The position numbers were made by a program, and so were the translations under genes. A stretch of 54,934 nucleotides of DNA from a virus (lineage: Duplodnaviria; Caudoviricetes), in IMG/VR virus record IMGVR_UViG_3300029263_001128, positions 1 to 54,934 of that record. The stretch is one strand, 5' to 3'. Shown here piece after piece: positions 1,796 to 22,442 of the stretch (within the stretch, counting starts at the first letter, position 1; each line of letters begins with the position of its first letter). The notes below the pieces were generated by a model. It saw nothing but the letters and a program-made list of their open reading frames with translations, searched no databases and was not told the DNA's origin.

Positions 1796-2191
1796 ATGGA
1801 AATAACGAAAAAAAGATTAAAAGCAATCATAATGGAAGAAATCAAGAACATGCACGAAGCAGGTGCCTCTAGAACAGTAGGTGGTGAAGCAGGTCTACAG
1901 CAATTTTATGCGGACAACGACCTAGATCCAAATAAAGACAGAGCTTTTATGAAGGCAATGCAGAAAGTTGGCAGTAAGCGCCCTAAGCGCATAAGACCAT
2001 TTGAGGAGGAACTCTATGACATCTATAATTTCCTAATAACAAAAGGTCTATATGATGAGAAGATGTACCCCGATGGTTCCCGTAGTAGAATGCCGGAGCC
2101 CGGAACAGGTGATCCCGAAGTTGCTCGTGCAGAACTCGTTAAAACTCCCGCTGACCCAAAGGCGATAGACTACGTTCTTGAACGATTGTGA
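1796..2191 (+). CDS. putative head/internal protein with MxITKxRLKxII(M/K)EE leader
   Basis: AAGGAG RBS; N-terminus shared with 7221..7646. Confidence 0.7.
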   Translation: MEITKKRLKAIIMEEIKNMHEAGASRTVGGEAGLQQFYADNDLDPNKDRAFMKAMQKVGSKRPKRIRPFEEELYDIYNFLITKGLYDEKMYPDGSRSRMPEPGTGDPEVARAELVKTPADPKAIDYVLERL

Positions 2192-2467: not shown

Positions 2468-2791
2468 GTGACGTGGAAAACTTTTTTAATTGCATTCTCG
2501 GTAGGCTGTGGCGGCGACATTGCCTATTATGATAGTGGAGAGCCGCTGTATCCTATCGAAGAGTGGACGTGTTCTCATAATGAGTCCCGTTATTCCGCCT
2601 ATGTGGAGGCGTCTACTATTGATTTGGAAGAGTGGACGGCAATAGACTTCTTTATTCACGACCATGATAGCAGCTATAGCTTGCCAATGAAGAAGCACGA
2701 AGATGGCTACTGGCGAACCTCTGGGAACATCTATGAGCTTGACTGCAATTCTGACAATTTGGGCACCTTTTGGGTCTACTACGAATTGTGA
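2468..2791 (+). CDS. putative lipoprotein
   Basis: GGAGG RBS, GTG start; short hydrophobic signal ending SVGC. Confidence 0.55.
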   Translation: MTWKTFLIAFSVGCGGDIAYYDSGEPLYPIEEWTCSHNESRYSAYVEASTIDLEEWTAIDFFIHDHDSSYSLPMKKHEDGYWRTSGNIYELDCNSDNLGTFWVYYEL

Positions 2792-3002
2792 TTTCTAGTG
2801 TGTTTGAGAGTGCGCCTGTAGTGGCGGTTTTGACGATGCGGAGGTGGAAACTTTTAGCGCAAGAAAAAGTTGCGGCAAAATAGGTGGTAAAAGAAGATAA
2901 ATTTTTTGCGTGCTTTGATTATGAGCATAGGGGTTTACGGACTATTTAAGTGTGCGCTCCCGTTGTTATGTGCTTGGGAGTCTATAAAGGAACTCTTATA
3001 AC

Positions 3003-3764
3003 ATGTTTAAACTAAAATCTATCTTATTTGCTCTCGTTTTTGCTTTTAGTAGCGTCGCTCGTGCTGAGGATGTCATCACTGAAGCCGTTTCAAATCAAAA
3101 TGTTGCTCTCATTGTCTCCGATGCGAGTATGTCTATGACGGAACGCAAGGTTCGCACTGCTGCGGTTCGCGTTTTCGCAAAGGGCGGTGGGCACGGATCT
3201 GGTTCTTACATCAAACATAAAGACTTCCACTTCATCTTGACAGCACAGCATGTCGCTGACGGCCCTGTTTATTCTGATTATGTCGTAAAGAAGGGCGAAG
3301 AGTCAAAGAAAGCAATCCTCGTTTGGTCTGACAAAACAACTGATATCGCCGTTCTTATGTTATTGACTCCATTTGAGACTATCACACCGATGTCTTTCAA
3401 GATAACTTCCGACATTCCAGAAGTGGGAACAGAGATTTCTTACTCTGGTTACCCCTCAAGCCACCAGTTGATGTCTATTCGTGGCAGAGTCGCTGGTTAT
3501 GAGCAGAAAAATGGTGCCGGAACTCAGATAATGCTACACACCTACGGGTGGTTTGGCTGTTCTGGTTCTGTAATCTACAATAAAAAAGAAGAAATCATTG
3601 GAGTTTTGTGGGGAGTTGATGTAGAATACTACCCTGGGATGGCTGTTGTTGAAGAGATGGTTTGGGTTATCCCGGTCCAGAAGTTAAAGATGGACGAAGT
3701 CGTAGAAAATACCTGTAAAACTAAGGGCACAAAGCAAGACCTATCTCGCTTTTGTAGAAGATAA
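3003..3764 (+). CDS. secreted trypsin-like serine protease
   Basis: signal peptide (..VARA), LTAQHV His, DIAVL Asp, GCSGS Ser. Confidence 0.85.
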   Translation: MFKLKSILFALVFAFSSVARAEDVITEAVSNQNVALIVSDASMSMTERKVRTAAVRVFAKGGGHGSGSYIKHKDFHFILTAQHVADGPVYSDYVVKKGEESKKAILVWSDKTTDIAVLMLLTPFETITPMSFKITSDIPEVGTEISYSGYPSSHQLMSIRGRVAGYEQKNGAGTQIMLHTYGWFGCSGSVIYNKKEEIIGVLWGVDVEYYPGMAVVEEMVWVIPVQKLKMDEVVENTCKTKGTKQDLSRFCRR

Positions 3765-3765
3765 A

Positions 3766-4455
3766 TTGAAATTATTACTTGAAAATTGGAGAAAGTTTAT
3801 TAACGAAGCCGACGATTCTAACTTCACGGTCTCAATGGACCCTCAAGACTTTTTGACCCTAACCTATCAGGACGATGCTGACATCGAAGGCAGATCCGAC
3901 TACATTATTGGAATGCCGGGCGGTTTTGATAAGGCGAAAGCCGGTAAACTATCTCTCGTTATCAAGAAGTGTTACGGCGACGATGTAGATAAGGTAATTT
4001 CCCACGCCGGGCGCGCACGATCTATGGCTGCTATGAAGTCGAGCATCGAGCAAGTGCCCGTAATCTTGACTTTTGTTAATTGTGAAGAGCAGCCTGTTCG
4101 TGGAATGAGCAGCTTAAGCTTTACTACAGGCCGGATAGAGGGGCAATTTGATAATTCTTCTGTCTCGGTGGACAAAATAGGCCAACACGAATCCCAAGGC
4201 ATCCTTGATCTTGACACAAAGACAGAAATGTCAGTAGGAGAATTGCTAAAAGTCCTACGAATTGCTTCTTTGGAGAAATCCAGAAGCAACTACAGAATGG
4301 CTGACCTTGTTTTGGACCTAAACAAAGAATATAATTTTATGTTCTCGGGCGGACCTGAACAGGTGAAGGTTATAGTGAGAAACGGACTTCGTTTTCCGGG
4401 GTTTGAGTCAGATCCTCCCGAAGATTCCAATGTAAAAGTCTTAAATAAAGAATAA
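3766..4455 (+). CDS. leader-bearing cassette 1: ParB/Srx-like domain protein
   Basis: MKLLLENWRKFINE leader (TTG start); VISHAGRARSMAA..VPVIL resembles degenerate ParB-like GxHR motif. Confidence 0.6.
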   Translation: MKLLLENWRKFINEADDSNFTVSMDPQDFLTLTYQDDADIEGRSDYIIGMPGGFDKAKAGKLSLVIKKCYGDDVDKVISHAGRARSMAAMKSSIEQVPVILTFVNCEEQPVRGMSSLSFTTGRIEGQFDNSSVSVDKIGQHESQGILDLDTKTEMSVGELLKVLRIASLEKSRSNYRMADLVLDLNKEYNFMFSGGPEQVKVIVRNGLRFPGFESDPPEDSNVKVLNKE

Positions 4456-4457
4456 TA

Positions 4458-5099
4458 ATGAAACTCCTACTTGAAAATTGGCGTGCCTATCTGGATGAAG
4501 AGCAGATAAACGAAAAAATGATGCTGAAACCCGGTCCACAGGGCTGGGATCTCTACGCACAGATAGTTGGCGATGCCTATTTAGCTGCTCCCAGGTTTGA
4601 ACAGAGGGCAGTTCCGCATTTTCAAGCTATGATACCCTTTCTGGAAAAAATGTTTAAGAGGATCTCAAGCAGAGTAGACATAGAATTCGTTGATTACCAC
4701 CCCTACAACACAGCAGCAGAGCTAAGGGATTCGGTAAAGAGCACTGGAAAGATGAAAATAGCAACAATTGATGCTGAAAACGATGTATTTGATGAGATCA
4801 CAAACGCAAAATTCAGAGCGGTCCACGATTATATGTCTCACATTCAGGCAATTGGTTCAAGAGGGACTGAATTTGATTTGAGAGGGGAGCTTGCCTCCTA
4901 TAATGCTCACCTCAAAACAATGCCACAGGAGTCTATTCCTGCCTTATTTACCGAGATTGTCGGACAGACTTGTGCCTATCACGCTGGTGGTGGCACTTTC
5001 GCAGAACAGAAGATCTGTCTATTAGATGGCTTCGATTACACCAACCTTGGTGTTGTCGAGGGTTACGACATAGTTAATAAGGAATTGGTAAAGAAATGA
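4458..5099 (+). CDS. leader-bearing cassette 2: putative metal-binding (HDxxxH..GE) protein
   Basis: MKLLLENWRAYLDE leader; FRAVHDYMSH...RGE motif. Confidence 0.6.
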   Translation: MKLLLENWRAYLDEEQINEKMMLKPGPQGWDLYAQIVGDAYLAAPRFEQRAVPHFQAMIPFLEKMFKRISSRVDIEFVDYHPYNTAAELRDSVKSTGKMKIATIDAENDVFDEITNAKFRAVHDYMSHIQAIGSRGTEFDLRGELASYNAHLKTMPQESIPALFTEIVGQTCAYHAGGGTFAEQKICLLDGFDYTNLGVVEGYDIVNKELVKK

Positions 5100-5611
5100 A
5101 ACTACTACTTGAAAATTGGCGAAATTTCTTGACTGAAGGAGATGTCTTGCGTATAGGGGCGTCCAATAGAAATATAGAAAATCAAAAAAGTCCAGAACTC
5201 TATGGCAACTGCGGAATGCTTGCTGTAGCTCTTTTAGAAGAAGGTATTAAACGCAACAAACAAGTGCAGGTCGTTTTCCTTCATAGCGCCGAAGATCCCC
5301 TTGAAGACGAAGACTATGACTTATATCATGTTGCCATGTATTATAATGGAAAATATTATGACGATCGTGGAGAAACTACAGAAAAAGAAATGTCTAGCCT
5401 AGTCCCCCTCGGATTAACAACTCCACAAAACGAGGAACCCCGCCAAGGGAGAGACTATAATCTAGATTCTTATATAGTTGATGATATGCAAGGTCTTGAC
5501 TATATTTATAAAATAGTTGAGTCCCTTACAGGCTGGTCAAAAACTTGTGATGAATATAGGCAGAGGTCCATAAAATTTTGGGATGGAATAGACAATGAAA
5601 CTACTACTTGA
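5096..5611 (+). CDS. leader-bearing cassette 3: papain/transglutaminase-like Cys-His-Asp protein
   Basis: MKLLLENWRNFLTE leader; GNCGMLAVAL...HVAMYYNGKYYDDRG. Confidence 0.6.
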   Translation: MKLLLENWRNFLTEGDVLRIGASNRNIENQKSPELYGNCGMLAVALLEEGIKRNKQVQVVFLHSAEDPLEDEDYDLYHVAMYYNGKYYDDRGETTEKEMSSLVPLGLTTPQNEEPRQGRDYNLDSYIVDDMQGLDYIYKIVESLTGWSKTCDEYRQRSIKFWDGIDNETTT

Positions 5612-6248
5612 AAATTGGCGAAAGTTCTTGACTGAAAATGAGGCAGCTTACTTCCCTTGGTTAGAGGAATTAGAAAACAAGGGCGGAAAAGCCCTTATGA
5701 GTCCCGATTTTCAACAAGCAGGTTCGGGAGCATTCCGTGTTGTCTTCAAACCAAAAGGAGATGAGGAGCACGTCATCAAGCTATCGAAAGATCCTCGCAA
5801 CAATTGGATGAATAAGATAGAGTCTGAAACGGCCAACTCTTACCCTGATTTGTTCCCCAAGACATTTGCTCACGCTGATGACTGGGAATGGATTGTCCAA
5901 GAAGCTGTCGAGGTGTTGAGCCGAAAAAACGAACAACAAATGCGTGTTATGTTACAGAAGACTTTTCCAAACATTTATGTTGTCTTCAAGGGCGCAACTA
6001 TAAAAGATTATGAACTTTTTCTCTTATGGAGCGATATCGTAGATGCCGCCAAAGGCCCTTACGCAACAAAAGACCAAAAGATTTTTGATTTTGGAATAAA
6101 AAATGAAAAAGCCTTTATTCAACTTGCTTCAGCTATCTCTAGATTCAAAATAGACAGCGAAGATCTGGGTTATGGCAACATAGGGATAAATGAACAAGGA
6201 CAATTAAGGATCTTAGATGCCTCTGTGCTCTTTAGACCAAAGGAATAA
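5595..6248 (+). CDS. leader-bearing cassette 4: protein-kinase-like domain
   Basis: MKLLLENWRKFLTE leader; GSGAFRVVF, VIKL, E, DLGYGNIG, ILD. Confidence 0.7.
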   Translation: MKLLLENWRKFLTENEAAYFPWLEELENKGGKALMSPDFQQAGSGAFRVVFKPKGDEEHVIKLSKDPRNNWMNKIESETANSYPDLFPKTFAHADDWEWIVQEAVEVLSRKNEQQMRVMLQKTFPNIYVVFKGATIKDYELFLLWSDIVDAAKGPYATKDQKIFDFGIKNEKAFIQLASAISRFKIDSEDLGYGNIGINEQGQLRILDASVLFRPKE

Positions 6249-6250
6249 TT

Positions 6251-6730
6251 ATGAAAATATTACTTGAAAACTGGCGGCGATTTATAAATGAGGATGTGCG
6301 AGTCACATTTAAAAAAGCAATTGATCTGGTCTGCCCTCCGGCAACGCAGGACTTGAAGCTTAACACAAAGAACCGTGATTCCGCAATTCATACTGAATAT
6401 ATCCAGTATGGCCCTTTAAATGTAGATAAGCCCGGTGACTACTGGGAGGAAATAGCAGATTATTGGGACTCAACCGAAGAAGCAGCCGAAGCTTCTAACT
6501 GTGGAGTTTGCACTGCTTTTGACATCTCTCCTCGGATGCTGGAATGTATGCCCGGAGAGACATCCGATGACGACGGGCTTCTCGGCTATTGCTGGATGCA
6601 CCACTTCAAGTGCCACTCTGCGCGAGCTTGTAGGACTTGGGCAAAAGGTGGCCCGATAGAAGAAGATTCAGTTTCTGCTGATTGGCAGGAGCGCTCAAAT
6701 ATTGGAGATAAAGATGAAACTCCTACTTGA
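6251..6730 (+). CDS. leader-bearing cassette 5: Cys/His-rich (HiPIP-like spacing) protein
   Basis: MKILLENWRRFINE leader; CGVCTAF...GYCWMHHFKC...CRTW. Confidence 0.6.
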   Translation: MKILLENWRRFINEDVRVTFKKAIDLVCPPATQDLKLNTKNRDSAIHTEYIQYGPLNVDKPGDYWEEIADYWDSTEEAAEASNCGVCTAFDISPRMLECMPGETSDDDGLLGYCWMHHFKCHSARACRTWAKGGPIEEDSVSADWQERSNIGDKDETPT

Positions 6731-7154
6731 AAACTGGAATAGGTTTTTGGCTGAAGCTGTAGAACTCCCTTCTGAATGTGAAGGTGAGGAAGGATATTAT
6801 CACTCTCTTCCCTCGTCTTTGATCAAGTCCGTACTAAGAAACGGACTCCGACCCAGCCCATCAGGGAGCGATTCAAAGTTCGGATTGGGTGAATGGTCTG
6901 CTGGCAAGTCTTTTATCTCGATGGGATATAGTAATGCAGTAAAGTGGCAAGTTCAGATAGAAGAGGCAACAGGTGAGCCTGCTGGCATTGTTCAGATAGA
7001 ACTGCCAGATGATTTTATAAATGCTCTGAAGCTTGACACACAGGCCGTAGATGACGGAGATCATTGTGCTTTCTATGTAGAAGAGGTAATTCCATCAAAG
7101 TTTATCACCCTGCTTGATTATGGCCCATCTGATTACTTTGAAGACGATGAATGA
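6714..7154 (+). CDS. leader-bearing cassette 6: ADP-ribosyltransferase-like domain
   Basis: true start ATG6714 (GGAG RBS); MKLLLENWNRFLAE; YYHS..SVLRNGLRP..SFIS..VEEVIP resembles Tpt1/KptA-like ART fold. Confidence 0.6.
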   Translation: MKLLLENWNRFLAEAVELPSECEGEEGYYHSLPSSLIKSVLRNGLRPSPSGSDSKFGLGEWSAGKSFISMGYSNAVKWQVQIEEATGEPAGIVQIELPDDFINALKLDTQAVDDGDHCAFYVEEVIPSKFITLLDYGPSDYFEDDE

Positions 7155-7183
7155 AGCTCCTAATTGAAAGTTGGCGCAACTAA
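7151..7183 (+). pseudogene. empty leader-only cassette MKLLIESWRN*
   Basis: ATGAAGCTCCTAATTGAAAGTTGGCGCAACTAA, ATGA-coupled to cassette 6; absent from ORF track (too short). Confidence 0.8.
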
Positions 7184-7220
7184 ATAAACCCACTATTTAA
7201 TTATAAAGAGGAAGACTAAT

Positions 7221-7646
7221 ATGAAGATTACCAAAGCAAGACTAAAACAGATCATCAAGGAAGAACTTGAGAATGTAGTGGAGGACCGCCAACCAAAATA
7301 TAAAATCAAGGCTTCTGATGTTAGCAAGGCACGTAAGATCCTTAATTATGCTGGTCACGGCTATGCCCTTGACGATGAGGGTAATCTACAAGCAGACGAT
7401 AAGTCCGTTAAGCTGCTTATCCCGAGCGGGATCGGTGTTCGGAGTGTGGAGGAAAAATTAAATGAAGAACTCACCCGTCAAGACAAAACCGATGTAAAGA
7501 AGATGGTCAAGGACGAACTTGAGAAGCTGCTTAAGAAAAAGGATACCAAGGATCAGATGGGTGAGATTGCAAAGAGAATTCTAAAGAAGCTTTACAAGGA
7601 TCTTTCATTAGAGCATCCATACATTATTGACCGCATCAAGATTTGA
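7221..7646 (+). CDS. putative head/internal protein with MKITKARLKQIIKEE leader
   Basis: CTATTTA motif and GAGG RBS upstream; internal LNEE and KKMVKDE repeats. Confidence 0.7.
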   Translation: MKITKARLKQIIKEELENVVEDRQPKYKIKASDVSKARKILNYAGHGYALDDEGNLQADDKSVKLLIPSGIGVRSVEEKLNEELTRQDKTDVKKMVKDELEKLLKKKDTKDQMGEIAKRILKKLYKDLSLEHPYIIDRIKI

Positions 7647-7655
7647 GGTTATTTT

Positions 7656-7865
7656 ATGACAATCCCCATCCCTGATCTGTGGTCAGAAAAGTTCTCGCAA
7701 GCGAAACAAGGAGACTGGATTTATTATCAAAACTACGCTAGCAAAATCACAGGATTAGTTGTGGAGGTTGACCAAAAGACCGACTTTATGAAAGTTCATT
7801 GCTTTGAGACAATGAATCTTCGATGGTTCACCAGAAAAAACATTGGTCAGTATTTGGTTTTATGA
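7656..7865 (+). CDS. small SH3/KOW-like protein
   Basis: KQGDWIYY..GLVVEV..KVHC. Confidence 0.55.
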   Translation: MTIPIPDLWSEKFSQAKQGDWIYYQNYASKITGLVVEVDQKTDFMKVHCFETMNLRWFTRKNIGQYLVL

Positions 7866-8053
7866 ATGTCGGCGACCTAGTTAGGCTCAAATACAAGTAT
7901 CCAATTTGGTTATTTTCTTTTGGGATCTCGGAAGGAGACATAGGACTGATAACTGAAATTTGTAGTGAAAGAGTTGCGAAAGTCTACTGGATTAAAATCC
8001 GAAGAGTAGCAGAAATAAACCTTGAGCTTATCAAGCCTGCTGAACAGGAGTAG
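7862..8053 (+). CDS. small SH3/KOW-like protein
   Basis: ATGA-coupled start 7862; MNVGDLVRLK..GLITEI..KVYW. Confidence 0.6.
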   Translation: MNVGDLVRLKYKYPIWLFSFGISEGDIGLITEICSERVAKVYWIKIRRVAEINLELIKPAEQE

Positions 8054-8055
8054 AG

Positions 8056-8334
8056 ATGATAAATAAAACAATTATTGGTTTGCTTTTTAACAGCACGCTA
8101 CAATTAAATTTTGTTCCGAACACTAACGAAGTTGAGGTAACTCAAACAGAGACAACCATTTCCTCTGGCAAGATTGTTTATTTGCTAGGCAATGTATGCA
8201 ATTTAAAGCCGTCTTATGAGTTTGACATAGAAAAAACAAGCGAATTTGCTGATGCGTGTGAGAAGCTTGATGAAAACTGGTTTCTTATCAGCAATGTAGA
8301 GGCTAGTTATAAGTATGAGAGTGCCCCCTTATAA
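8056..8334 (+). CDS. hypothetical protein
   Basis: ORF in operon; GGAG RBS. Confidence 0.5.
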   Translation: MINKTIIGLLFNSTLQLNFVPNTNEVEVTQTETTISSGKIVYLLGNVCNLKPSYEFDIEKTSEFADACEKLDENWFLISNVEASYKYESAPL

Positions 8335-8575
8335 GCGCAGCGATTTACATGCTGGCCTCTTGATTAAAGATTTAGATTCTGGTGACCTTGGGTTGCTTGT
8401 CTCTAGATTTGATTTGATGAAAAATTGGGATTTTGACGAGCCCATCTGGGTCTGGGATATGTTTTGGTCCGGGCCGACCACCGACAATGAAAACAGAAAT
8501 GTTCCGTTTATTGAACAAGCGATTATTGGTTTGCTCAACGGGGGCGTCTGGTCCATAGTAGAAAATGATGCTTGA
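8315..8575 (+). CDS. small SH3-like protein
   Basis: LHAGLLIKD..GDLGLLV..WDMFW. Confidence 0.55.
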   Translation: MRVPPYKRSDLHAGLLIKDLDSGDLGLLVSRFDLMKNWDFDEPIWVWDMFWSGPTTDNENRNVPFIEQAIIGLLNGGVWSIVENDA

Positions 8576-8846
8576 TGAGTTGCGAGAGAAGGTAGAACAC
8601 GTTACATTAGGAGTAGGTGATCTGATAATAGATGTTCGCACGGGGTCTAAAGGTTTTCTCTCCGAGAGGGAGAGGCGCATAGACATTACCCACGACGATA
8701 TCTACATCTGGAAGATTTCTTGGTTTCACCATTCAAAAAAGTTTAGTCAGTTTAATGCTCTTCCATTTATGGAAGAAGAGGGGCTAAAAATGTCTATTCT
8801 AATTGGAACAATAATAATTCATAAAGCAGGAGTCGATAGTGAGTAA
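8565..8846 (+). CDS. small SH3-like protein
   Basis: LGVGDLIID..KGFL..WKISW; resembles 8315..8575. Confidence 0.55.
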   Translation: MMLDELREKVEHVTLGVGDLIIDVRTGSKGFLSERERRIDITHDDIYIWKISWFHHSKKFSQFNALPFMEEEGLKMSILIGTIIIHKAGVDSE

Positions 8847-9273
8847 CTGGAACGTCTATAAGATTTTCAAGAGCGGTAAAAGGGCCAAGAGCCCATTTGA
8901 AACATTTGAAGCATCAGATAAAGAGCACTTCTTCTCTGAAATTCTACCAACATTAGGAGAGAAGCTACAGAAATCAGACTGGCTTGTCATCTCTGTTGAA
9001 GAGCCGCAAGAACGCCCAGAGGGTGGCACAATGTCTGAAGATGATATGGTTGCCAAAAAGCGCAATCGTTATCTAACAAAAATTGCTATCGAATTATTTC
9101 CAGACATTGCTGGTAAGGGTGTCTCCACCTGTCTTATGATGAACGAACAAACAGATTGGAAATGGGCTTGGTGTATAGCCGAAGGGGGAACCCATAGATT
9201 CCTCGGTCTCTTGTCTAACAAGTTTGAGACGAGAAAGGAGGTTATTGCGTGGATCGACACGGCTGGCATCTAG
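8839..9273 (+). CDS. hypothetical protein
   Basis: AGGAG RBS, GTG start. Confidence 0.6.
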   Translation: MSNWNVYKIFKSGKRAKSPFETFEASDKEHFFSEILPTLGEKLQKSDWLVISVEEPQERPEGGTMSEDDMVAKKRNRYLTKIAIELFPDIAGKGVSTCLMMNEQTDWKWAWCIAEGGTHRFLGLLSNKFETRKEVIAWIDTAGI

Positions 9274-9485
9274 CACACAGGATTGGAGATCTCATCAGGG
9301 TTGTTGAGAAAACAACCATAAACACTCTTAATGGGAATGCCGAAGTTGGTGACCTCGGTGTCGTAATTAATTGCCCGAAGGAATCATCTGGAATTTTATT
9401 TGTAGAGGTTTACCTAATGAAATCGAGCAATATACGATGGTTCTCTCCTATCGAAATAGACACAATCTCAAACATAGGTGAGTAG
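9249..9485 (+). CDS. small SH3/KOW-like protein
   Basis: RIGDLIRV..GDLGVVI..VEVY. Confidence 0.55.
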   Translation: MDRHGWHLAHRIGDLIRVVEKTTINTLNGNAEVGDLGVVINCPKESSGILFVEVYLMKSSNIRWFSPIEIDTISNIGE

Positions 9486-9515
9486 CTCTCTATTTATTAA
9501 TAGAGGGTTCTCGCA

Positions 9516-9683: not shown

Positions 9684-10900
9684 TGTATCAAAAATTTTGG
9701 AATCAATTTTTAATAGAACAAGAAGAACTTGTTGGAACCACTGTTGACTTTCCTCCAGCTAACTCAAAAAGAATTGGTAGAAAATGGGGTGCAGGTGATA
9801 AGCCTGCTCGCGTGCCGCCCCCGGCACGTTCCCACCCATCCCCCTTTACCACAGGGATTGGGGCTTATTTAATTAGCAAAGGCTATGATTTAGATACAAA
9901 GCTTGGTGGCGGCGTTGATGGCATTGTCTACCGAGCAATAAATAAAAAGACCGGTAAGAACGTGGCTGTAAAAGTTGTTCTCAGAACAACACAGGGAGAT
10001 ATGAAAAGAGAAGCTGCTAACTACAAATTCATTTTAGATAACAGAGAATCACTTGGACAATATGCAAAATATTTCCCCGTGGTTTATTCTTCGGAAATAG
10101 ACCAGATACCTGCAAACAAAGAGACAATGGAAGGAAGAAAAGTAGAAGCTGCCATTATTATTATGGAACAACTTGAACTTCTGCCAGACGATGTTGCAAG
10201 AAGTCTTTTTGCAACAAATGTCAATTATAAGAAAGACAAGCAAGCAAGAACCCAGAGAGACAAGAGGCTTTTTAAAAGCTATAAACTCGTTGGAAACCTG
10301 ATCAACATGGCTATTAGCTTAACTGATCCCGCATACACAAGTCCATTCATCTCTTATGAGGCGCAAGAAAAAATAGAAAAATCAATAATAACAACAATGT
10401 TTGGTAAGAAGCGTTACGCCCCGGTGCGACCGGCGGGTGTCTCGCCTTTAGGGGTCCAAGGGTTGACTGATGAGGCTAAGGAACTTATGAACTTATTCGT
10501 AAATGTGACGTATACGTCAATACTAAGAGATCCTACGAGTAAAGCAGATATGGATATTGTTATGGATTACAAAGATATTATCAAGCGTGATTTAGCAAAC
10601 GCTTTTATTAAAGCGTATTCTCGACCCATTGTCTCTGGGGGTGTCCCTGACGCCCTCAGAGTAGGCTCAAGCTTAAAGGGTTTTGACCAATACTATTCTT
10701 CTGAAGATGCGGTAGGTGACCATTTCCCAGAGTCAGTTGGGATCAGAAAGGCAATGCAAGCACTCTCAGGCGAAGGTTTAAAGCCATTTGATGTTCACAA
10801 CGGAAATGTTATGATGAGACCCAAGACAAATGAGATTGTTATTGTTGACCTTGGGAGGTTCAAGGGGCTTGAAACCAACGAAAGTCTCAGAAATGTATGA
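9683..10900 (+). CDS. Ser/Thr protein kinase-like protein with large insertion
   Basis: LGGGVDGIVY, VAVK, E, IIMEQL, DVHNGNVM, IVDLG; N-terminal FWNQFLIE leader variant. Confidence 0.8.
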   Translation: MYQKFWNQFLIEQEELVGTTVDFPPANSKRIGRKWGAGDKPARVPPPARSHPSPFTTGIGAYLISKGYDLDTKLGGGVDGIVYRAINKKTGKNVAVKVVLRTTQGDMKREAANYKFILDNRESLGQYAKYFPVVYSSEIDQIPANKETMEGRKVEAAIIIMEQLELLPDDVARSLFATNVNYKKDKQARTQRDKRLFKSYKLVGNLINMAISLTDPAYTSPFISYEAQEKIEKSIITTMFGKKRYAPVRPAGVSPLGVQGLTDEAKELMNLFVNVTYTSILRDPTSKADMDIVMDYKDIIKRDLANAFIKAYSRPIVSGGVPDALRVGSSLKGFDQYYSSEDAVGDHFPESVGIRKAMQALSGEGLKPFDVHNGNVMMRPKTNEIVIVDLGRFKGLETNESLRNV

Positions 10901-11274: not shown

Positions 11275-12270
11275 ATGGGCGGCAATGTTTTCACTGGTGA
11301 GGCTGTTGAGTCAATCCCTATGGAGTTTATCCAGCCGACACTGGCGGCTTACTACCAAGAACTATCGGCTTTGTTCCCCCAGCACTCCAATTTCTTTAAA
11401 ACCTTCACCACTTTGGGGTCTGTCGGTAAGAAAAGCAAGTCTGGCGACATTGATCTGGCTGTAGACGTAAAGAAATTGTTCCCGCAAGGCCGGATAACCA
11501 CCGAAGATCTACAAAGTTGGAACCTAAATCCCGCGTTGTGGCGTGAAACCTATGAAAAAATGCTAAAGCGGGCACGAACTGCTACACCACACGAGGTTTC
11601 ACTGCGTGCGTTCCTCTATGAACTATCAAAATACATTGGTGAGCGCTCTAATTTGATCAAAAGTGACCTTAAAAAGGTGCGTCCAGGCCAAATGTTCACG
11701 CTTTTCCCCCAAATTACCGATTTTGGTCAGCAAATGGAGGTCTCCGTCCAGATTGATTGGATGTTGGGAGACCCAGAATGGCTAAAATTCTCTTATTTTT
11801 CCCCAATGCCCTCCAAAAGACAGCCTATGTTGAAGGGATTACACAGAACCCAGTTGATTTTGGCGATGTTTGGGGCAAAAGGCTATGCGTTTAGGCATGT
11901 GGGCGGTGTATTTCACAAGACCACAGGCAAAAAGGTCGCCCATAGCCCTTCAGAAGCCTCTGAACTGCTCCAAAAACTCTATGAGACACCTGTTACCACT
12001 CAAAAATTAGAATGCTTCAGCACCATCTACAGCTTTCTAACGTCCAGTTGTTCCAATGATGACCAAAATGGCGCCTTTGACTCTTATTTGTGCATCCTAG
12101 ACTACACAAATGGCAACAAAGAAGTTGATCCAAGCAGCGGAGAATGGCGTCGGTGTGGCTATATCCCTCAAGAACTAGAGGAATATTGGATCCTAAACAA
12201 AGAAAGACTTGGTTTGAAGGGCAGGTACCTCTGTAAGACCGCGAATCACAGGCTCCGTGCGTCGTTATAA
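11275..12270 (+). CDS. Pol-beta-superfamily nucleotidyltransferase-like protein
   Basis: LGSVGKK..SGDIDLAVD and VQIDWM third Asp. Confidence 0.7.
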   Translation: MGGNVFTGEAVESIPMEFIQPTLAAYYQELSALFPQHSNFFKTFTTLGSVGKKSKSGDIDLAVDVKKLFPQGRITTEDLQSWNLNPALWRETYEKMLKRARTATPHEVSLRAFLYELSKYIGERSNLIKSDLKKVRPGQMFTLFPQITDFGQQMEVSVQIDWMLGDPEWLKFSYFSPMPSKRQPMLKGLHRTQLILAMFGAKGYAFRHVGGVFHKTTGKKVAHSPSEASELLQKLYETPVTTQKLECFSTIYSFLTSSCSNDDQNGAFDSYLCILDYTNGNKEVDPSSGEWRRCGYIPQELEEYWILNKERLGLKGRYLCKTANHRLRASL

Positions 12271-17204: not shown

Positions 17205-17555
17205 ATGAAGAAGAATAGAAGATCAAAGTATAGATACAAGAGTATAATTAATAAATTATTAAATAATAATATCATAAATGAGAGTAACCTTACTTTCATT
17301 GATAGTATGTCTTTAGAAGATTTGATTGCTGTTAAATTAGAACTCTCAGCAAAACACATAAACAATAAGCTTTATGCTTTCAATCTCTTATCTAATACCA
17401 ATAGACTAGTTAAAGAAGCAATCATAAAGTTTGCTATCAGTGCTACTAACTCTAAAATGGATGCTGCTAGGTTTCTTGGAACTGACTATGAAACTCTACA
17501 CTCACTAGTTAGAGAATACAACTTACAGGAGTTCTTTGATGAAATTAATAATTGA
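17205..17555 (+). CDS. putative DNA-binding protein, Fis-like C-terminal HTH
   Basis: SKMDAARFLGTDYETL..LVREY; TTGACA at 17171 upstream. Confidence 0.6.
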   Translation: MKKNRRSKYRYKSIINKLLNNNIINESNLTFIDSMSLEDLIAVKLELSAKHINNKLYAFNLLSNTNRLVKEAIIKFAISATNSKMDAARFLGTDYETLHSLVREYNLQEFFDEINN

Positions 17556-18231
17556 AAACTTCAGAAAGTTCTTAGTAGAACAAAACTTTATTTCTGAGAT
17601 TCCGTTAGAACAAGATGAAGAAGGTAACGTCATCCTCTATCACGTATCCAGAGTAGATGACATAGAAGAGTTAGACCCTGACATCGCAGCAAGAAACCTT
17701 CAGAACTACACCACAGCAGAGTATAGAACCTGGGATAGACCCAGAGTTTTCTTTTTTACTCGTCTCGGACAAGAAGATATTGGCATTGGTCAGATACAGG
17801 GTATACCTTACCGTGTTAGACTAAAACCAGATCAACTCTACCCGATTATGGAAGACCCGGCAGGACTATCTTCCAAGCAAGAACAACAAAACTGGATGAC
17901 AGAGAACATTCCAGAGTTTGCTGAAAAGACACAAGAAGCACAGAAGTGTTCTAACTTTGAACGCTATGGCCAATACCATATTTGTTCTAAGACCCCAGAT
18001 TCAGATGGGTTATATTTTACTGATGAGAGGTTTGCAGGAAAAATGTTTCTTGTAAACAATCCTAAGTTTCATCACCTTAAACCAAACACATACGAAATGG
18101 TTGCACAACTATCAGAAGAGCGTTATAATAGTATAGGGTTCATTTATCCACAGAGTGGCGAAAAAGACAAACAGATCGTTGCTTTGTGGCGTAAGGTTCC
18201 AACAGAGAAACTAGATAAAGATTTTTATTAG
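17539..18231 (+). CDS. leader-bearing protein, ADP-ribosyltransferase-like domain
   Basis: MKLIIENFRKFLVE leader; VILYHVS..ELDP..PRVFFF..YRVRL. Confidence 0.55.
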   Translation: MKLIIENFRKFLVEQNFISEIPLEQDEEGNVILYHVSRVDDIEELDPDIAARNLQNYTTAEYRTWDRPRVFFFTRLGQEDIGIGQIQGIPYRVRLKPDQLYPIMEDPAGLSSKQEQQNWMTENIPEFAEKTQEAQKCSNFERYGQYHICSKTPDSDGLYFTDERFAGKMFLVNNPKFHHLKPNTYEMVAQLSEERYNSIGFIYPQSGEKDKQIVALWRKVPTEKLDKDFY

Positions 18232-18628: not shown

Positions 18629-18716
18629 AGTGAGGTGTCCGAGTGGTTTAAGGAGCCGGTCTAGAAAACCGGTGTAGGGCAACCCCCTACCGTGGGTTCG
18701 AATCCCACCCTCACTG
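18629..18716 (+). tRNA. tRNA-Ser(AGA)
   Basis: AGTGAGG/CCTCACT acceptor, G73, loop CT-AGA-AA, long variable arm GTAGGG/CCCTAC, GTTCGAATC; no encoded CCA. Confidence 0.9.
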
Positions 18717-18737
18717 CCCCCTCTTATTTCAACCAAA

Positions 18738-22279: not shown

Positions 22280-22355
22280 GCCGGTATAGCTCAGTTGGTA
22301 GAGCTTCTGTTTTGTAAACAGGGGGCCGGGAGTTCGAATCTCTCTGCCGGCACCA
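22280..22355 (+). tRNA. tRNA-Thr(TGT)
   Basis: 76-nt cloverleaf, loop TT-TGT-AA, encoded CCA. Confidence 0.93.
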
Positions 22356-22366
22356 TTTAAAATAAC

Positions 22367-22442
22367 GGGGAATTAGCTCAGTTGGGAGAGCACCAGAATG
22401 GCATTCTGGGGGTCAGGGGTTCGAGCCCCCTATTCTCCACCA
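22367..22442 (+). tRNA. tRNA-Ala(GGC)
   Basis: 76-nt cloverleaf, G3:U70, loop AT-GGC-AT, encoded CCA. Confidence 0.93.

Follow-up and report, generated by a model that had tools for sequence, protein, structure and literature searches.

A row of six tandem genes in a viral DNA ends in a 33-nt open reading frame that encodes only the leader with which each of the six begins. This raises the question of what the leader-only ORF (the stub) is, how it came to stand there and what it reveals about the array. The window, i.e. the whole stretch of 54,934 nt that was analysed, is a linear viral record and a fragment of an uncultured marine T4-like phage. Its features are collected in Table 1.

Table 1. 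Features of the array, its surroundings and other leader-related genes in the window
Feature	Position	Strand	Remarks
Second gene with MKITK-type leader	1796..2191	+
Promoter-like motif ACTATTTA	2941..2948	+	Precedes protease gene and array; conserved in L139, L140 and L142; putative function
Trypsin-like serine protease gene	3003..3764	+	Adjoins the array upstream; Pfam Trypsin_2, E 4.4e-12; phrog_9683 protease
Cassette c1, 229 aa	3766..4455	+	TTG start; leader MKLLLENWRKFINE
Cassette c2, 213 aa	4458..5099	+	phrog_3170, function unknown
Cassette c3, 171 aa	5096..5611	+	Ends at a TGA inside the c4 leader; absent from L139, L140, L142 and L303
Cassette c4, 217 aa	5595..6248	+	phrog_4301, function unknown
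Cassette c5, 159 aa	6251..6730	+	Cys-rich; ends at a TGA inside the next leader
Cassette c6, 146 aa	6714..7154	+	Absent from L139, L142 and L303
Leader-only ORF (stub)	7151..7183	+	ATG AAG CTC CTA ATT GAA AGT TGG CGC AAC TAA (MKLLIESWRN, stop)
Spacer, 37 nt	7184..7220	+	Holds ACTATTTA at 7192-7199 and the ribosome-binding region of the next gene (AAGAGGAAG)
Gene with second leader type	7221..7646	+	Leader MKITKARLKQIIKEEL; 204 nt at 7260-7463 missing in relatives
Leaderless gene	11275..12270	+	Leader present in the L018, L029 and L014 orthologs, its boundary exactly behind E14
Leader-A gene outside the array	17539..18231	+	MKLIIENFRKFLVE; stable ortholog in G001
tRNA gene Ser-AGA	18629..18718
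tRNA gene Thr-TGT	22280..22355
tRNA gene Ala-GGC	22367..22442

Genome setting and relatives

Sequencing runs that hold window sequence are labelled marine, seawater or ice metagenomes. A blastn search of positions 2500-9500 against isolated phages gave no match, and none was obtained by tblastn of the 405-aa neighbouring gene. The leader also occurs at loci on viral contigs 150-200 kb long. The nearest long relative, G001 (locus L018), shares synteny with the window to the left and to the right of the array, yet holds a different set of cassettes, the first of which is the ortholog of c5. The G001 portal is closest, among cultured phages, to those of Microcystis phage Mel-JY01 (40.3%) and Flavobacterium phage immuto (38.8%). 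Closer relatives were obtained from a metagenome scan with a neighbouring gene, which gave four loci at ~90% protein identity, three of them (L139, L140 and L142) reaching the array.

Positions 1-1700 of the window have a G+C content of 51%, compared to 35-46% in the rest, and several frames hold long ORFs there. In L018 this GC-rich stretch likewise stands ahead of the syntenic genes, and an Rfam search of positions 1-1700 returned no family match. From ~27500 to 47900 there is a long run of genes whose translations resemble, by eye, sugar-nucleotide/glycosyltransferase enzymes, a radical-SAM protein and GlmS.

The leader-only ORF and its array

The mini-ORF reads exactly as it had been quoted in an earlier sequence-only reading, including the lack of a payload. 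A degenerate leader pattern matched the 54.9-kb window seven times, always on the + strand and at the starts of c1-c6 and of the stub, compared to a mean of 0.03 matches in shuffled sequence; seven matches were reached in 0 of 100 shuffles. The stub is the seventh copy of the leader that opens six unrelated tandem genes. Beyond its leader all three frames are closed within 25 nt and the stub is therefore not the start of a frameshifted longer gene.

The ATG of the stub overlaps the TGA of c6 as ATGA. Coupling of this kind had been taken as general for the array; this was observed for c6 and the stub but is found at only two of the six in-array junctions, the other being c2/c3. Gaps of 2 nt separate c1 from c2 and c4 from c5, and overlaps of 17 nt join c3 to c4 and c5 to c6. 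At the 17-nt overlaps the upstream gene stops at a TGA hidden in the CT-TGA-AA of the next leader. The start codon of c1 is TTG instead of ATG in the window and in L140, and ATG in L139 and L142.

Apart from the leader, c1-c6 have nothing in common and share no Pfam or PHROG family. A Pfam search of the six returned no family for any of them, and PHROG matches were found for only two, both annotated as function unknown. In L139 (4222-4360) and L140 (2950-3090), as compared to positions 3766-3810 of the window, c1 contains an extra module of 33 aa (EEVLTEKCWDGYKQAGLK..MVPNCVPLNE) directly after the leader. TTAACGAA repeats stand on both sides of this module, whose own last residues are L-N-E. 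The CWxGY module recurs behind the leader in a cassette of L018 and in the full gene of L303 described below.

A CTATTTA motif had been noted between the stub and the following gene. In its longer form, ACTATTTA, the motif is real: it occurs at 12 sites (1754, 2941, 7192, 9629, 13926, 14356, 16385, 18762, 19640, 23050, 24625 and 33216), all on the + strand and mostly 17-60 nt before gene starts, compared to 1.95 sites expected. Of four sites tested, three are conserved in relatives, and the motif probably serves as a phage promoter element. The perfect copy at 7192 is however unique to the window, the three close relatives reading ACTACTTA there, and this copy was rejected as a conserved promoter.

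Origin of the leader-only ORF

The gene from which the stub derives is still present at the same position in other lineages. L303, which is 86-89% identical to the window in nucleotide sequence over c1, c2, c4 and c5, has a full leader gene of 228 aa (3001-3687) straight after c5 and straight before the MKITK genes. This gene ends in ...DLLNYEEDDYYEDY followed by a stop. A homolog of 186 aa is found at the same place in G001 and L029, the two copies being 96% identical, and in G001 this last cassette overlaps the start of an MKITK-leader gene. The 37-nt spacer of the window aligns to the coding 3' ends of L303:3001-3687 and L018:5454-6014. When the stub frame of L140 and L139 is read beyond its TAA it yields LLNYEEDDYYEDY and a stop (T-N-P/Q-L-L-N-Y-E-E-D-D-Y-Y-E-D-Y-stop), which corresponds to the last 13 residues of the full gene, including the one codon by which L303 differs from G001.

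The 5' side points in the same direction. The leaders of the stub and of the last G001 cassette have in common an ATT at codon 5 and TGGCGCAA; they score 26 of 30, which is a three-way tie for the best non-self match among 278 leader entries. Roughly 13 nt at the deletion junction match nothing convincingly and the right endpoint is accordingly blurred. The spacer of the window has decayed further, with a second stop and differences from L140 at 6 of 39 nt. These alignments identify the stub as the first 10 codons of a cassette that lost its payload by deletion, and stub and spacer as the two ends of the gene that is still whole in L303, G001 and L029. As the full gene stands at the same spot in one close and two distant lineages, stub plus spacer is the derived state. 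The retained 3' part holds the AAGAGGA ribosome-binding site of the next gene, which explains why it was spared. The "scar of cassette loss" proposed in the sequence-only reading is thereby borne out by payload-bearing genes at the same position.

The deleted cassette is distinct from c6, for which no homology to it was found past the leader; BLASTP of c6 against the last G001 cassette aligned residues 1-14 only.

Cassette turnover among close relatives

L139, L140 and L142 are 93-95% identical to the window in nucleotide sequence and differ from it by whole cassettes. In addition to the absences of c3 and c6 given in Table 1, L139 and L142 carry three extra cassettes between c1 and c2, bounded by leaders. 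For all three differences (c3, c6 and the three-cassette block) both ends lie inside leader DNA. The flanks of the c3 difference switch inside 43 nt that are common to the c3 and c4 leaders with one mismatch, and at the three-cassette block the switch falls between the leader ATG and TGG. The stub itself is the right-hand crossover site for the c6 difference: in L139 and L142 it is chimeric, ATGAAACTCCTGCTTGAAA joined to GTTGGCGCAACTAA, its 5' part corresponding to the c6 leader and its 3' part to the stub. The gain and loss of cassettes by recombination within leader DNA, as had been proposed from the window alone, is supported by the position of these breakpoints, and leader DNA can on this comparison be named as the crossover site. 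It had also been reckoned that a mini-ORF kept invariantly, with no cassette turnover, would speak against such a process. The 33-nt ORF is indeed kept in L139, L140 and L142 alike, but the cassettes around it turn over abundantly.

All compared sequences are metagenome assemblies and the leaders are repeats of 30-43 nt, between which assemblers can in principle jump. That the stub or the differences in cassette order are artefacts of such jumps is nevertheless extremely improbable. Contigs of four public runs, which belong to three studies, extend from c6 through the stub into the next gene, and this makes an artefact at the joint unlikely, and the stub is present in four separately assembled sequences. 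Absence of c3 is likewise seen in four sequences from at least two assembly sources (L139/L142, L140 and L303). L139 and L142 are possibly two assemblies of one sample, so that the absence of c6 may rest on a single source. Among the matches listed, contigs of the four runs contained neither joints skipping c6 nor a payload joined to the stub. Many further contigs match the leader alone and diverge at its edges, which fits its presence on many other cassettes of these communities. In run X3, joints from one leader to another (e.g. 5122>6714 and 5625>6714) were set aside as unreliable, the shorter side spanning 24-35 nt at 88% likeness.

The array block of L303 is 86-89% identical to that of the window in nucleotide sequence, but over the core genes that follow immediately downstream identity is ~72%, which suggests an exchange of arrays between diverged phages.

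Recombination machinery

A tyrosine recombinase/integrase (PF00589) was found in none of five records, comprising the window and four related ones of which three are at least 95% complete, under conditions where controls matched in 14 of 14 genomes. Serine recombinase/resolvase (PF00239) was likewise found in 0 of the same 5 records, with controls matching in 12 of 14 genomes. The earlier remark that no integrase is visible in the window thus holds and extends to the related records. A RecA/UvsX-like gene was present in three of three near-complete relatives, and T4-type recombination is reported to need less than 50 bp of homology (PMC2839356).

The array had been likened to an integron. This stands only as an analogy, given tandem same-strand cassettes without promoters of their own and turnover at a fixed boundary sequence, and one could accordingly suppose a dedicated site-specific recombinase that uses the leader as its attachment site. 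Such an enzyme is very improbable in view of the absence of both recombinase families from the five records and the low homology requirement just cited. Moreover, crossovers fall anywhere within the identical stretch, which is the pattern of homologous exchange and reveals no fixed cut site. The likeness also ends at the intergenic elements: there is nothing like attC because the junctions are coding.

Persistence of the stub

In the window and L140, 0 of 33 nt differ in the stub, compared to the 6 of 39 nt in the spacer behind it. The stub furthermore provides a stop codon to c5 in L139 and to c6 in the window. Leader-only ORFs of 10-16 codons recur elsewhere: a pattern scan of at least 153 loci gave 9 among 195 leader starts, in 6 distinct forms. 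Most of these abut the ATG of a next, leaderless gene, with the WR codons (GGCGAGG or GGAGGAA) at a Shine-Dalgarno-like spot. These observations, together with the intact stub in all three relatives, would agree with a selected functional element, i.e. an array cap that gives the last cassette its stop, couples ribosomes and acts as a 3' homology arm. Selection of this kind is compatible with an origin by deletion. It is a tentative and rather doubtful proposition as the numbers are small, gene conversion by other leaders would equally keep the stub clean, and L303, G001 and L029 manage without a stub.

Persistence may also be accounted for by the exchange unit. The stops of c3 and c5 lie in the leader that comes next, and the TGA of c6 in the ATGA of the stub, so that the cassette unit effectively runs from mid-leader to mid-leader. 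The last unit of an array therefore needs a trailing leader core, and this need may be the reason why stubs persist.

The leader peptide

The leader consensus of 115 distinct proteins is M-K-L-L-[LFMI]-E-N-W-R-[KRE]-[FY]-[LIV]-x-E. Position 12 is L, I or V in 106 of the 115 and position 14 is E in 95, after which conservation collapses. Codons for Leu3, Leu4, Arg9 and Leu12 vary synonymously across these leaders, indicating that selection acts on the peptide itself. The end of the leader, [LIV]-x-E, corresponds to the cutting motif of the T4 gp21 head protease, which is given in PMC9026906 as L/I-X-E with the cut following it. The same source describes a 10-residue CTS of IPIII that directs proteins into the prohead core. 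A prohead protease of the gp21 family (PF03420, Peptidase_S77) was found in 9 of 10 large leader-bearing records, among them all 8 with a completeness of at least 90%; these counts refer to relatives only, the window being a fragment without head genes.

Two further observations fit a removable tag ending at E14. The gene at 11275 starts M-GGNVF, and its orthologs in L018, L029 and L014 start with the leader up to and including the E, followed by GGN[VI]F. The other observation concerns G001, where a leader-A gene and two small genes with the MKITK leader are placed between portal and protease, the position of the prohead core genes 67 and 68 in T4.

The leader could instead serve in something other than capsid targeting, namely as a docking helix for some other common partner, as a degradation or regulatory tag, or at the mRNA level as a translation or regulator-binding element. 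The recombination story would be unchanged. T4 IpIII starts MKTYQEFIAE and IpI starts MKTFKEF...ITE; the leader found here, MKLLLENWRKFLNE, has in common with the CTS MKTYQEFIAE only M1, K2, E6 and the terminal [IL]-x-E. This likeness is weak, the first 27 nt of leader DNA are very uniform within one genome, and the array lies outside the head module. A role of this kind is a real possibility, yet the less expected one, as the synonymous codon variety points to selection on the peptide, conservation stops exactly at [LIV]-x-E, I-K-E is likewise found at positions 12-14 of the second leader family, the gp21-type protease accompanies the leader in nearly all of the records, and the leaderless ortholog starts at residue 15. 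On this sequence evidence it is judged somewhat probable that the leader acts as a propeptide for capsid targeting, which a gp21-type head protease would cut after E14 as in T4 internal proteins. If so, the payloads would be proteins that are packed in the head and injected into the host.

The leader pattern had 0 matches in Flavobacterium phage immuto, a near cultured phage by portal (38.8% identity). Small head-module proteins of immuto (L297) at 10606-10833 and 8720-8941 begin MENNFDIHKWQAKFLKE... and MKKSQIVKAVQEVLEE..., respectively, and bear a faint likeness to the two leaders.

The second leader

The second leader reads M-K-I-T-K-x-Q-L-K-Q-I-I-K-E-E-L and opens two genes of the window, at 1796-2191 and 7221-7646, and 208 distinct proteins in related loci. 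Its I-K-E at positions 12-14 coincides in position with the [LIV]-x-E that ends the first leader. Contigs of run X3 match the MKITK leader alone and diverge at 7220 and 7270, and a leader-only version of 25 codons is found in G002 at 171024-170947. In the MKITK gene that follows the stub, the 204-nt segment at 7260-7463 is in frame, has ...KEEL codons at both edges, and is absent from L139, L140, L142 and contigs of runs X3 and X8 (joint 7259>7464). Such a pattern suggests that rearrangements are mediated by the second leader in the manner of the first.

A candidate fold for the last cassette

Fifteen homologs of c6, all leader-bearing, have an invariant Y-Y-H and E123. The structure model of c6 is mediocre, with a mean pLDDT of 66.6 and only one of five models above 50. 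Foldseek matched the model only to ADP-ribosyltransferase folds (Arr and KptA/Tpt1; best E 2.7e-3), and atlas leads were PARP and Tox-ART-HYD1. As a weak lead, c6 is probably of the ADP-ribosyltransferase fold and may parallel T4 Alt.

Proposed course of events

The findings combine into the following scheme. In an uncultured marine T4-like phage, a hypervariable row of unrelated genes is enclosed by a protease gene on one side and a conserved core block on the other, and each gene of the row opens with the same 14-residue leader, MKLLLENWR-x-[FY]-[LIV]-x-E. The leader core, ~27-43 nt of near-identical DNA, is the site where general homologous recombination adds and removes whole cassettes. 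At the right-hand end an internal deletion took out a payload of roughly 490-610 nt and left the leader core, the junction TAA and the last ~12-16 codons, whose survival is due to the ribosome-binding site that they contain for the following gene. Retained ever since, the stub would now act as the right-hand homology arm of the array and as a stop codon supplier for whichever cassette comes last. The comparisons show that the stub is a deletion remnant, that cassette differences between strains end in leaders and that a site-specific recombinase is absent from the records searched; the scheme as a whole is the best explanation and is considered quite probable.

A bolder version, which we regard as unlikely, would make the arrays an integrase-free capture system of marine T4-like phages for capsid-packed, injected proteins. 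The tag DNA would combine recombination site, stop codon and translational coupler, stubs would be maintained docking points for payloads including leaderless genes, and the array block would move between diverged phages.

Implications

Taken alone, the stub is an ordinary deletion scar that is informative mainly about the array. It does however expose a widespread leader family in marine viral contigs, on at least 153 stretches, that tags diverse orphan proteins; the leader strings were not found as peptides in the literature searched. If the leader is a capsid-targeting tag, the proteins that bear it in ocean phages would form a large set of candidates for injection into the host, with roles in host takeover or counter-defence, and the T-even internal-protein model would extend far beyond enterobacterial phages. 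The array is also a clean natural example of ~30-40 bp of coding homology organising modular evolution without a recombinase.

Comparison with known systems

One of the two nearest counterparts is found in the internal proteins of T-even phages, which according to PMC12373910 and PMC3012670 have only an N-terminal leader in common and sit in a hotspot. As with the T4 CTS on IPI, IPII, IPIII and Alt, a short N-terminal leader is the sole common part of unrelated proteins, it ends in L/I-X-E (PMC9026906), and relatives encode a gp21-family protease. Genes in both hotspots vary between close relatives, and the one payload here that may be an ADP-ribosyltransferase, c6, would have its likeness in Alt. 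The leader described here differs in being 14 residues long and of different sequence, and it is known from sequence alone. In contrast to the T-even loci, as many as 7-8 overlapping genes directly follow one another in an array without any regulatory element between them, crossovers fall in leader-coding DNA, and a second leader family (MKITK...) occurs alongside.

The other is PeSL-mediated modular shuffling in the hyperplastic regions of T4-like phages (Arbiol et al. 2010, PMC2839356), where short repeats flank variable orphan genes, insertions and deletions that distinguish close relatives terminate in these repeats, of which a single chimeric copy is left, and no dedicated recombinase is needed. 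The authors themselves liken PeSL to integrons. PeSL is described there as an intergenic promoter-plus-stem-loop, whereas the repeat here is the first 27-43 nt of coding sequence together with the stop codon of the previous gene. Neither promoter-like sites (12 vs 10.8 expected) nor terminator-like sites (7 vs 4.4 expected) were enriched in the array region at 2800-8200. Relative to the T-even loci and PeSL, the present case differs in the leader sequence, the long, overlapping and translationally coupled arrays, and a repeat inside coding sequence that provides the stop of its neighbour.

With integrons the array has in common tandem cassettes on one strand, read from one upstream start, whose content turns over at a fixed boundary. 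It differs in lacking an IntI-type integrase (0 of 5 records), attC and attI, and in exchanging by homology in coding DNA. A further parallel is offered by the polymorphic toxin arrays of Rhs and CDI systems, in which a short conserved stretch lets homologous recombination swap modules and truncated leftovers remain at the array end. In those systems the leftovers are payloads without the conserved part, whereas the leftover at the end of the present array is the conserved part without a payload.
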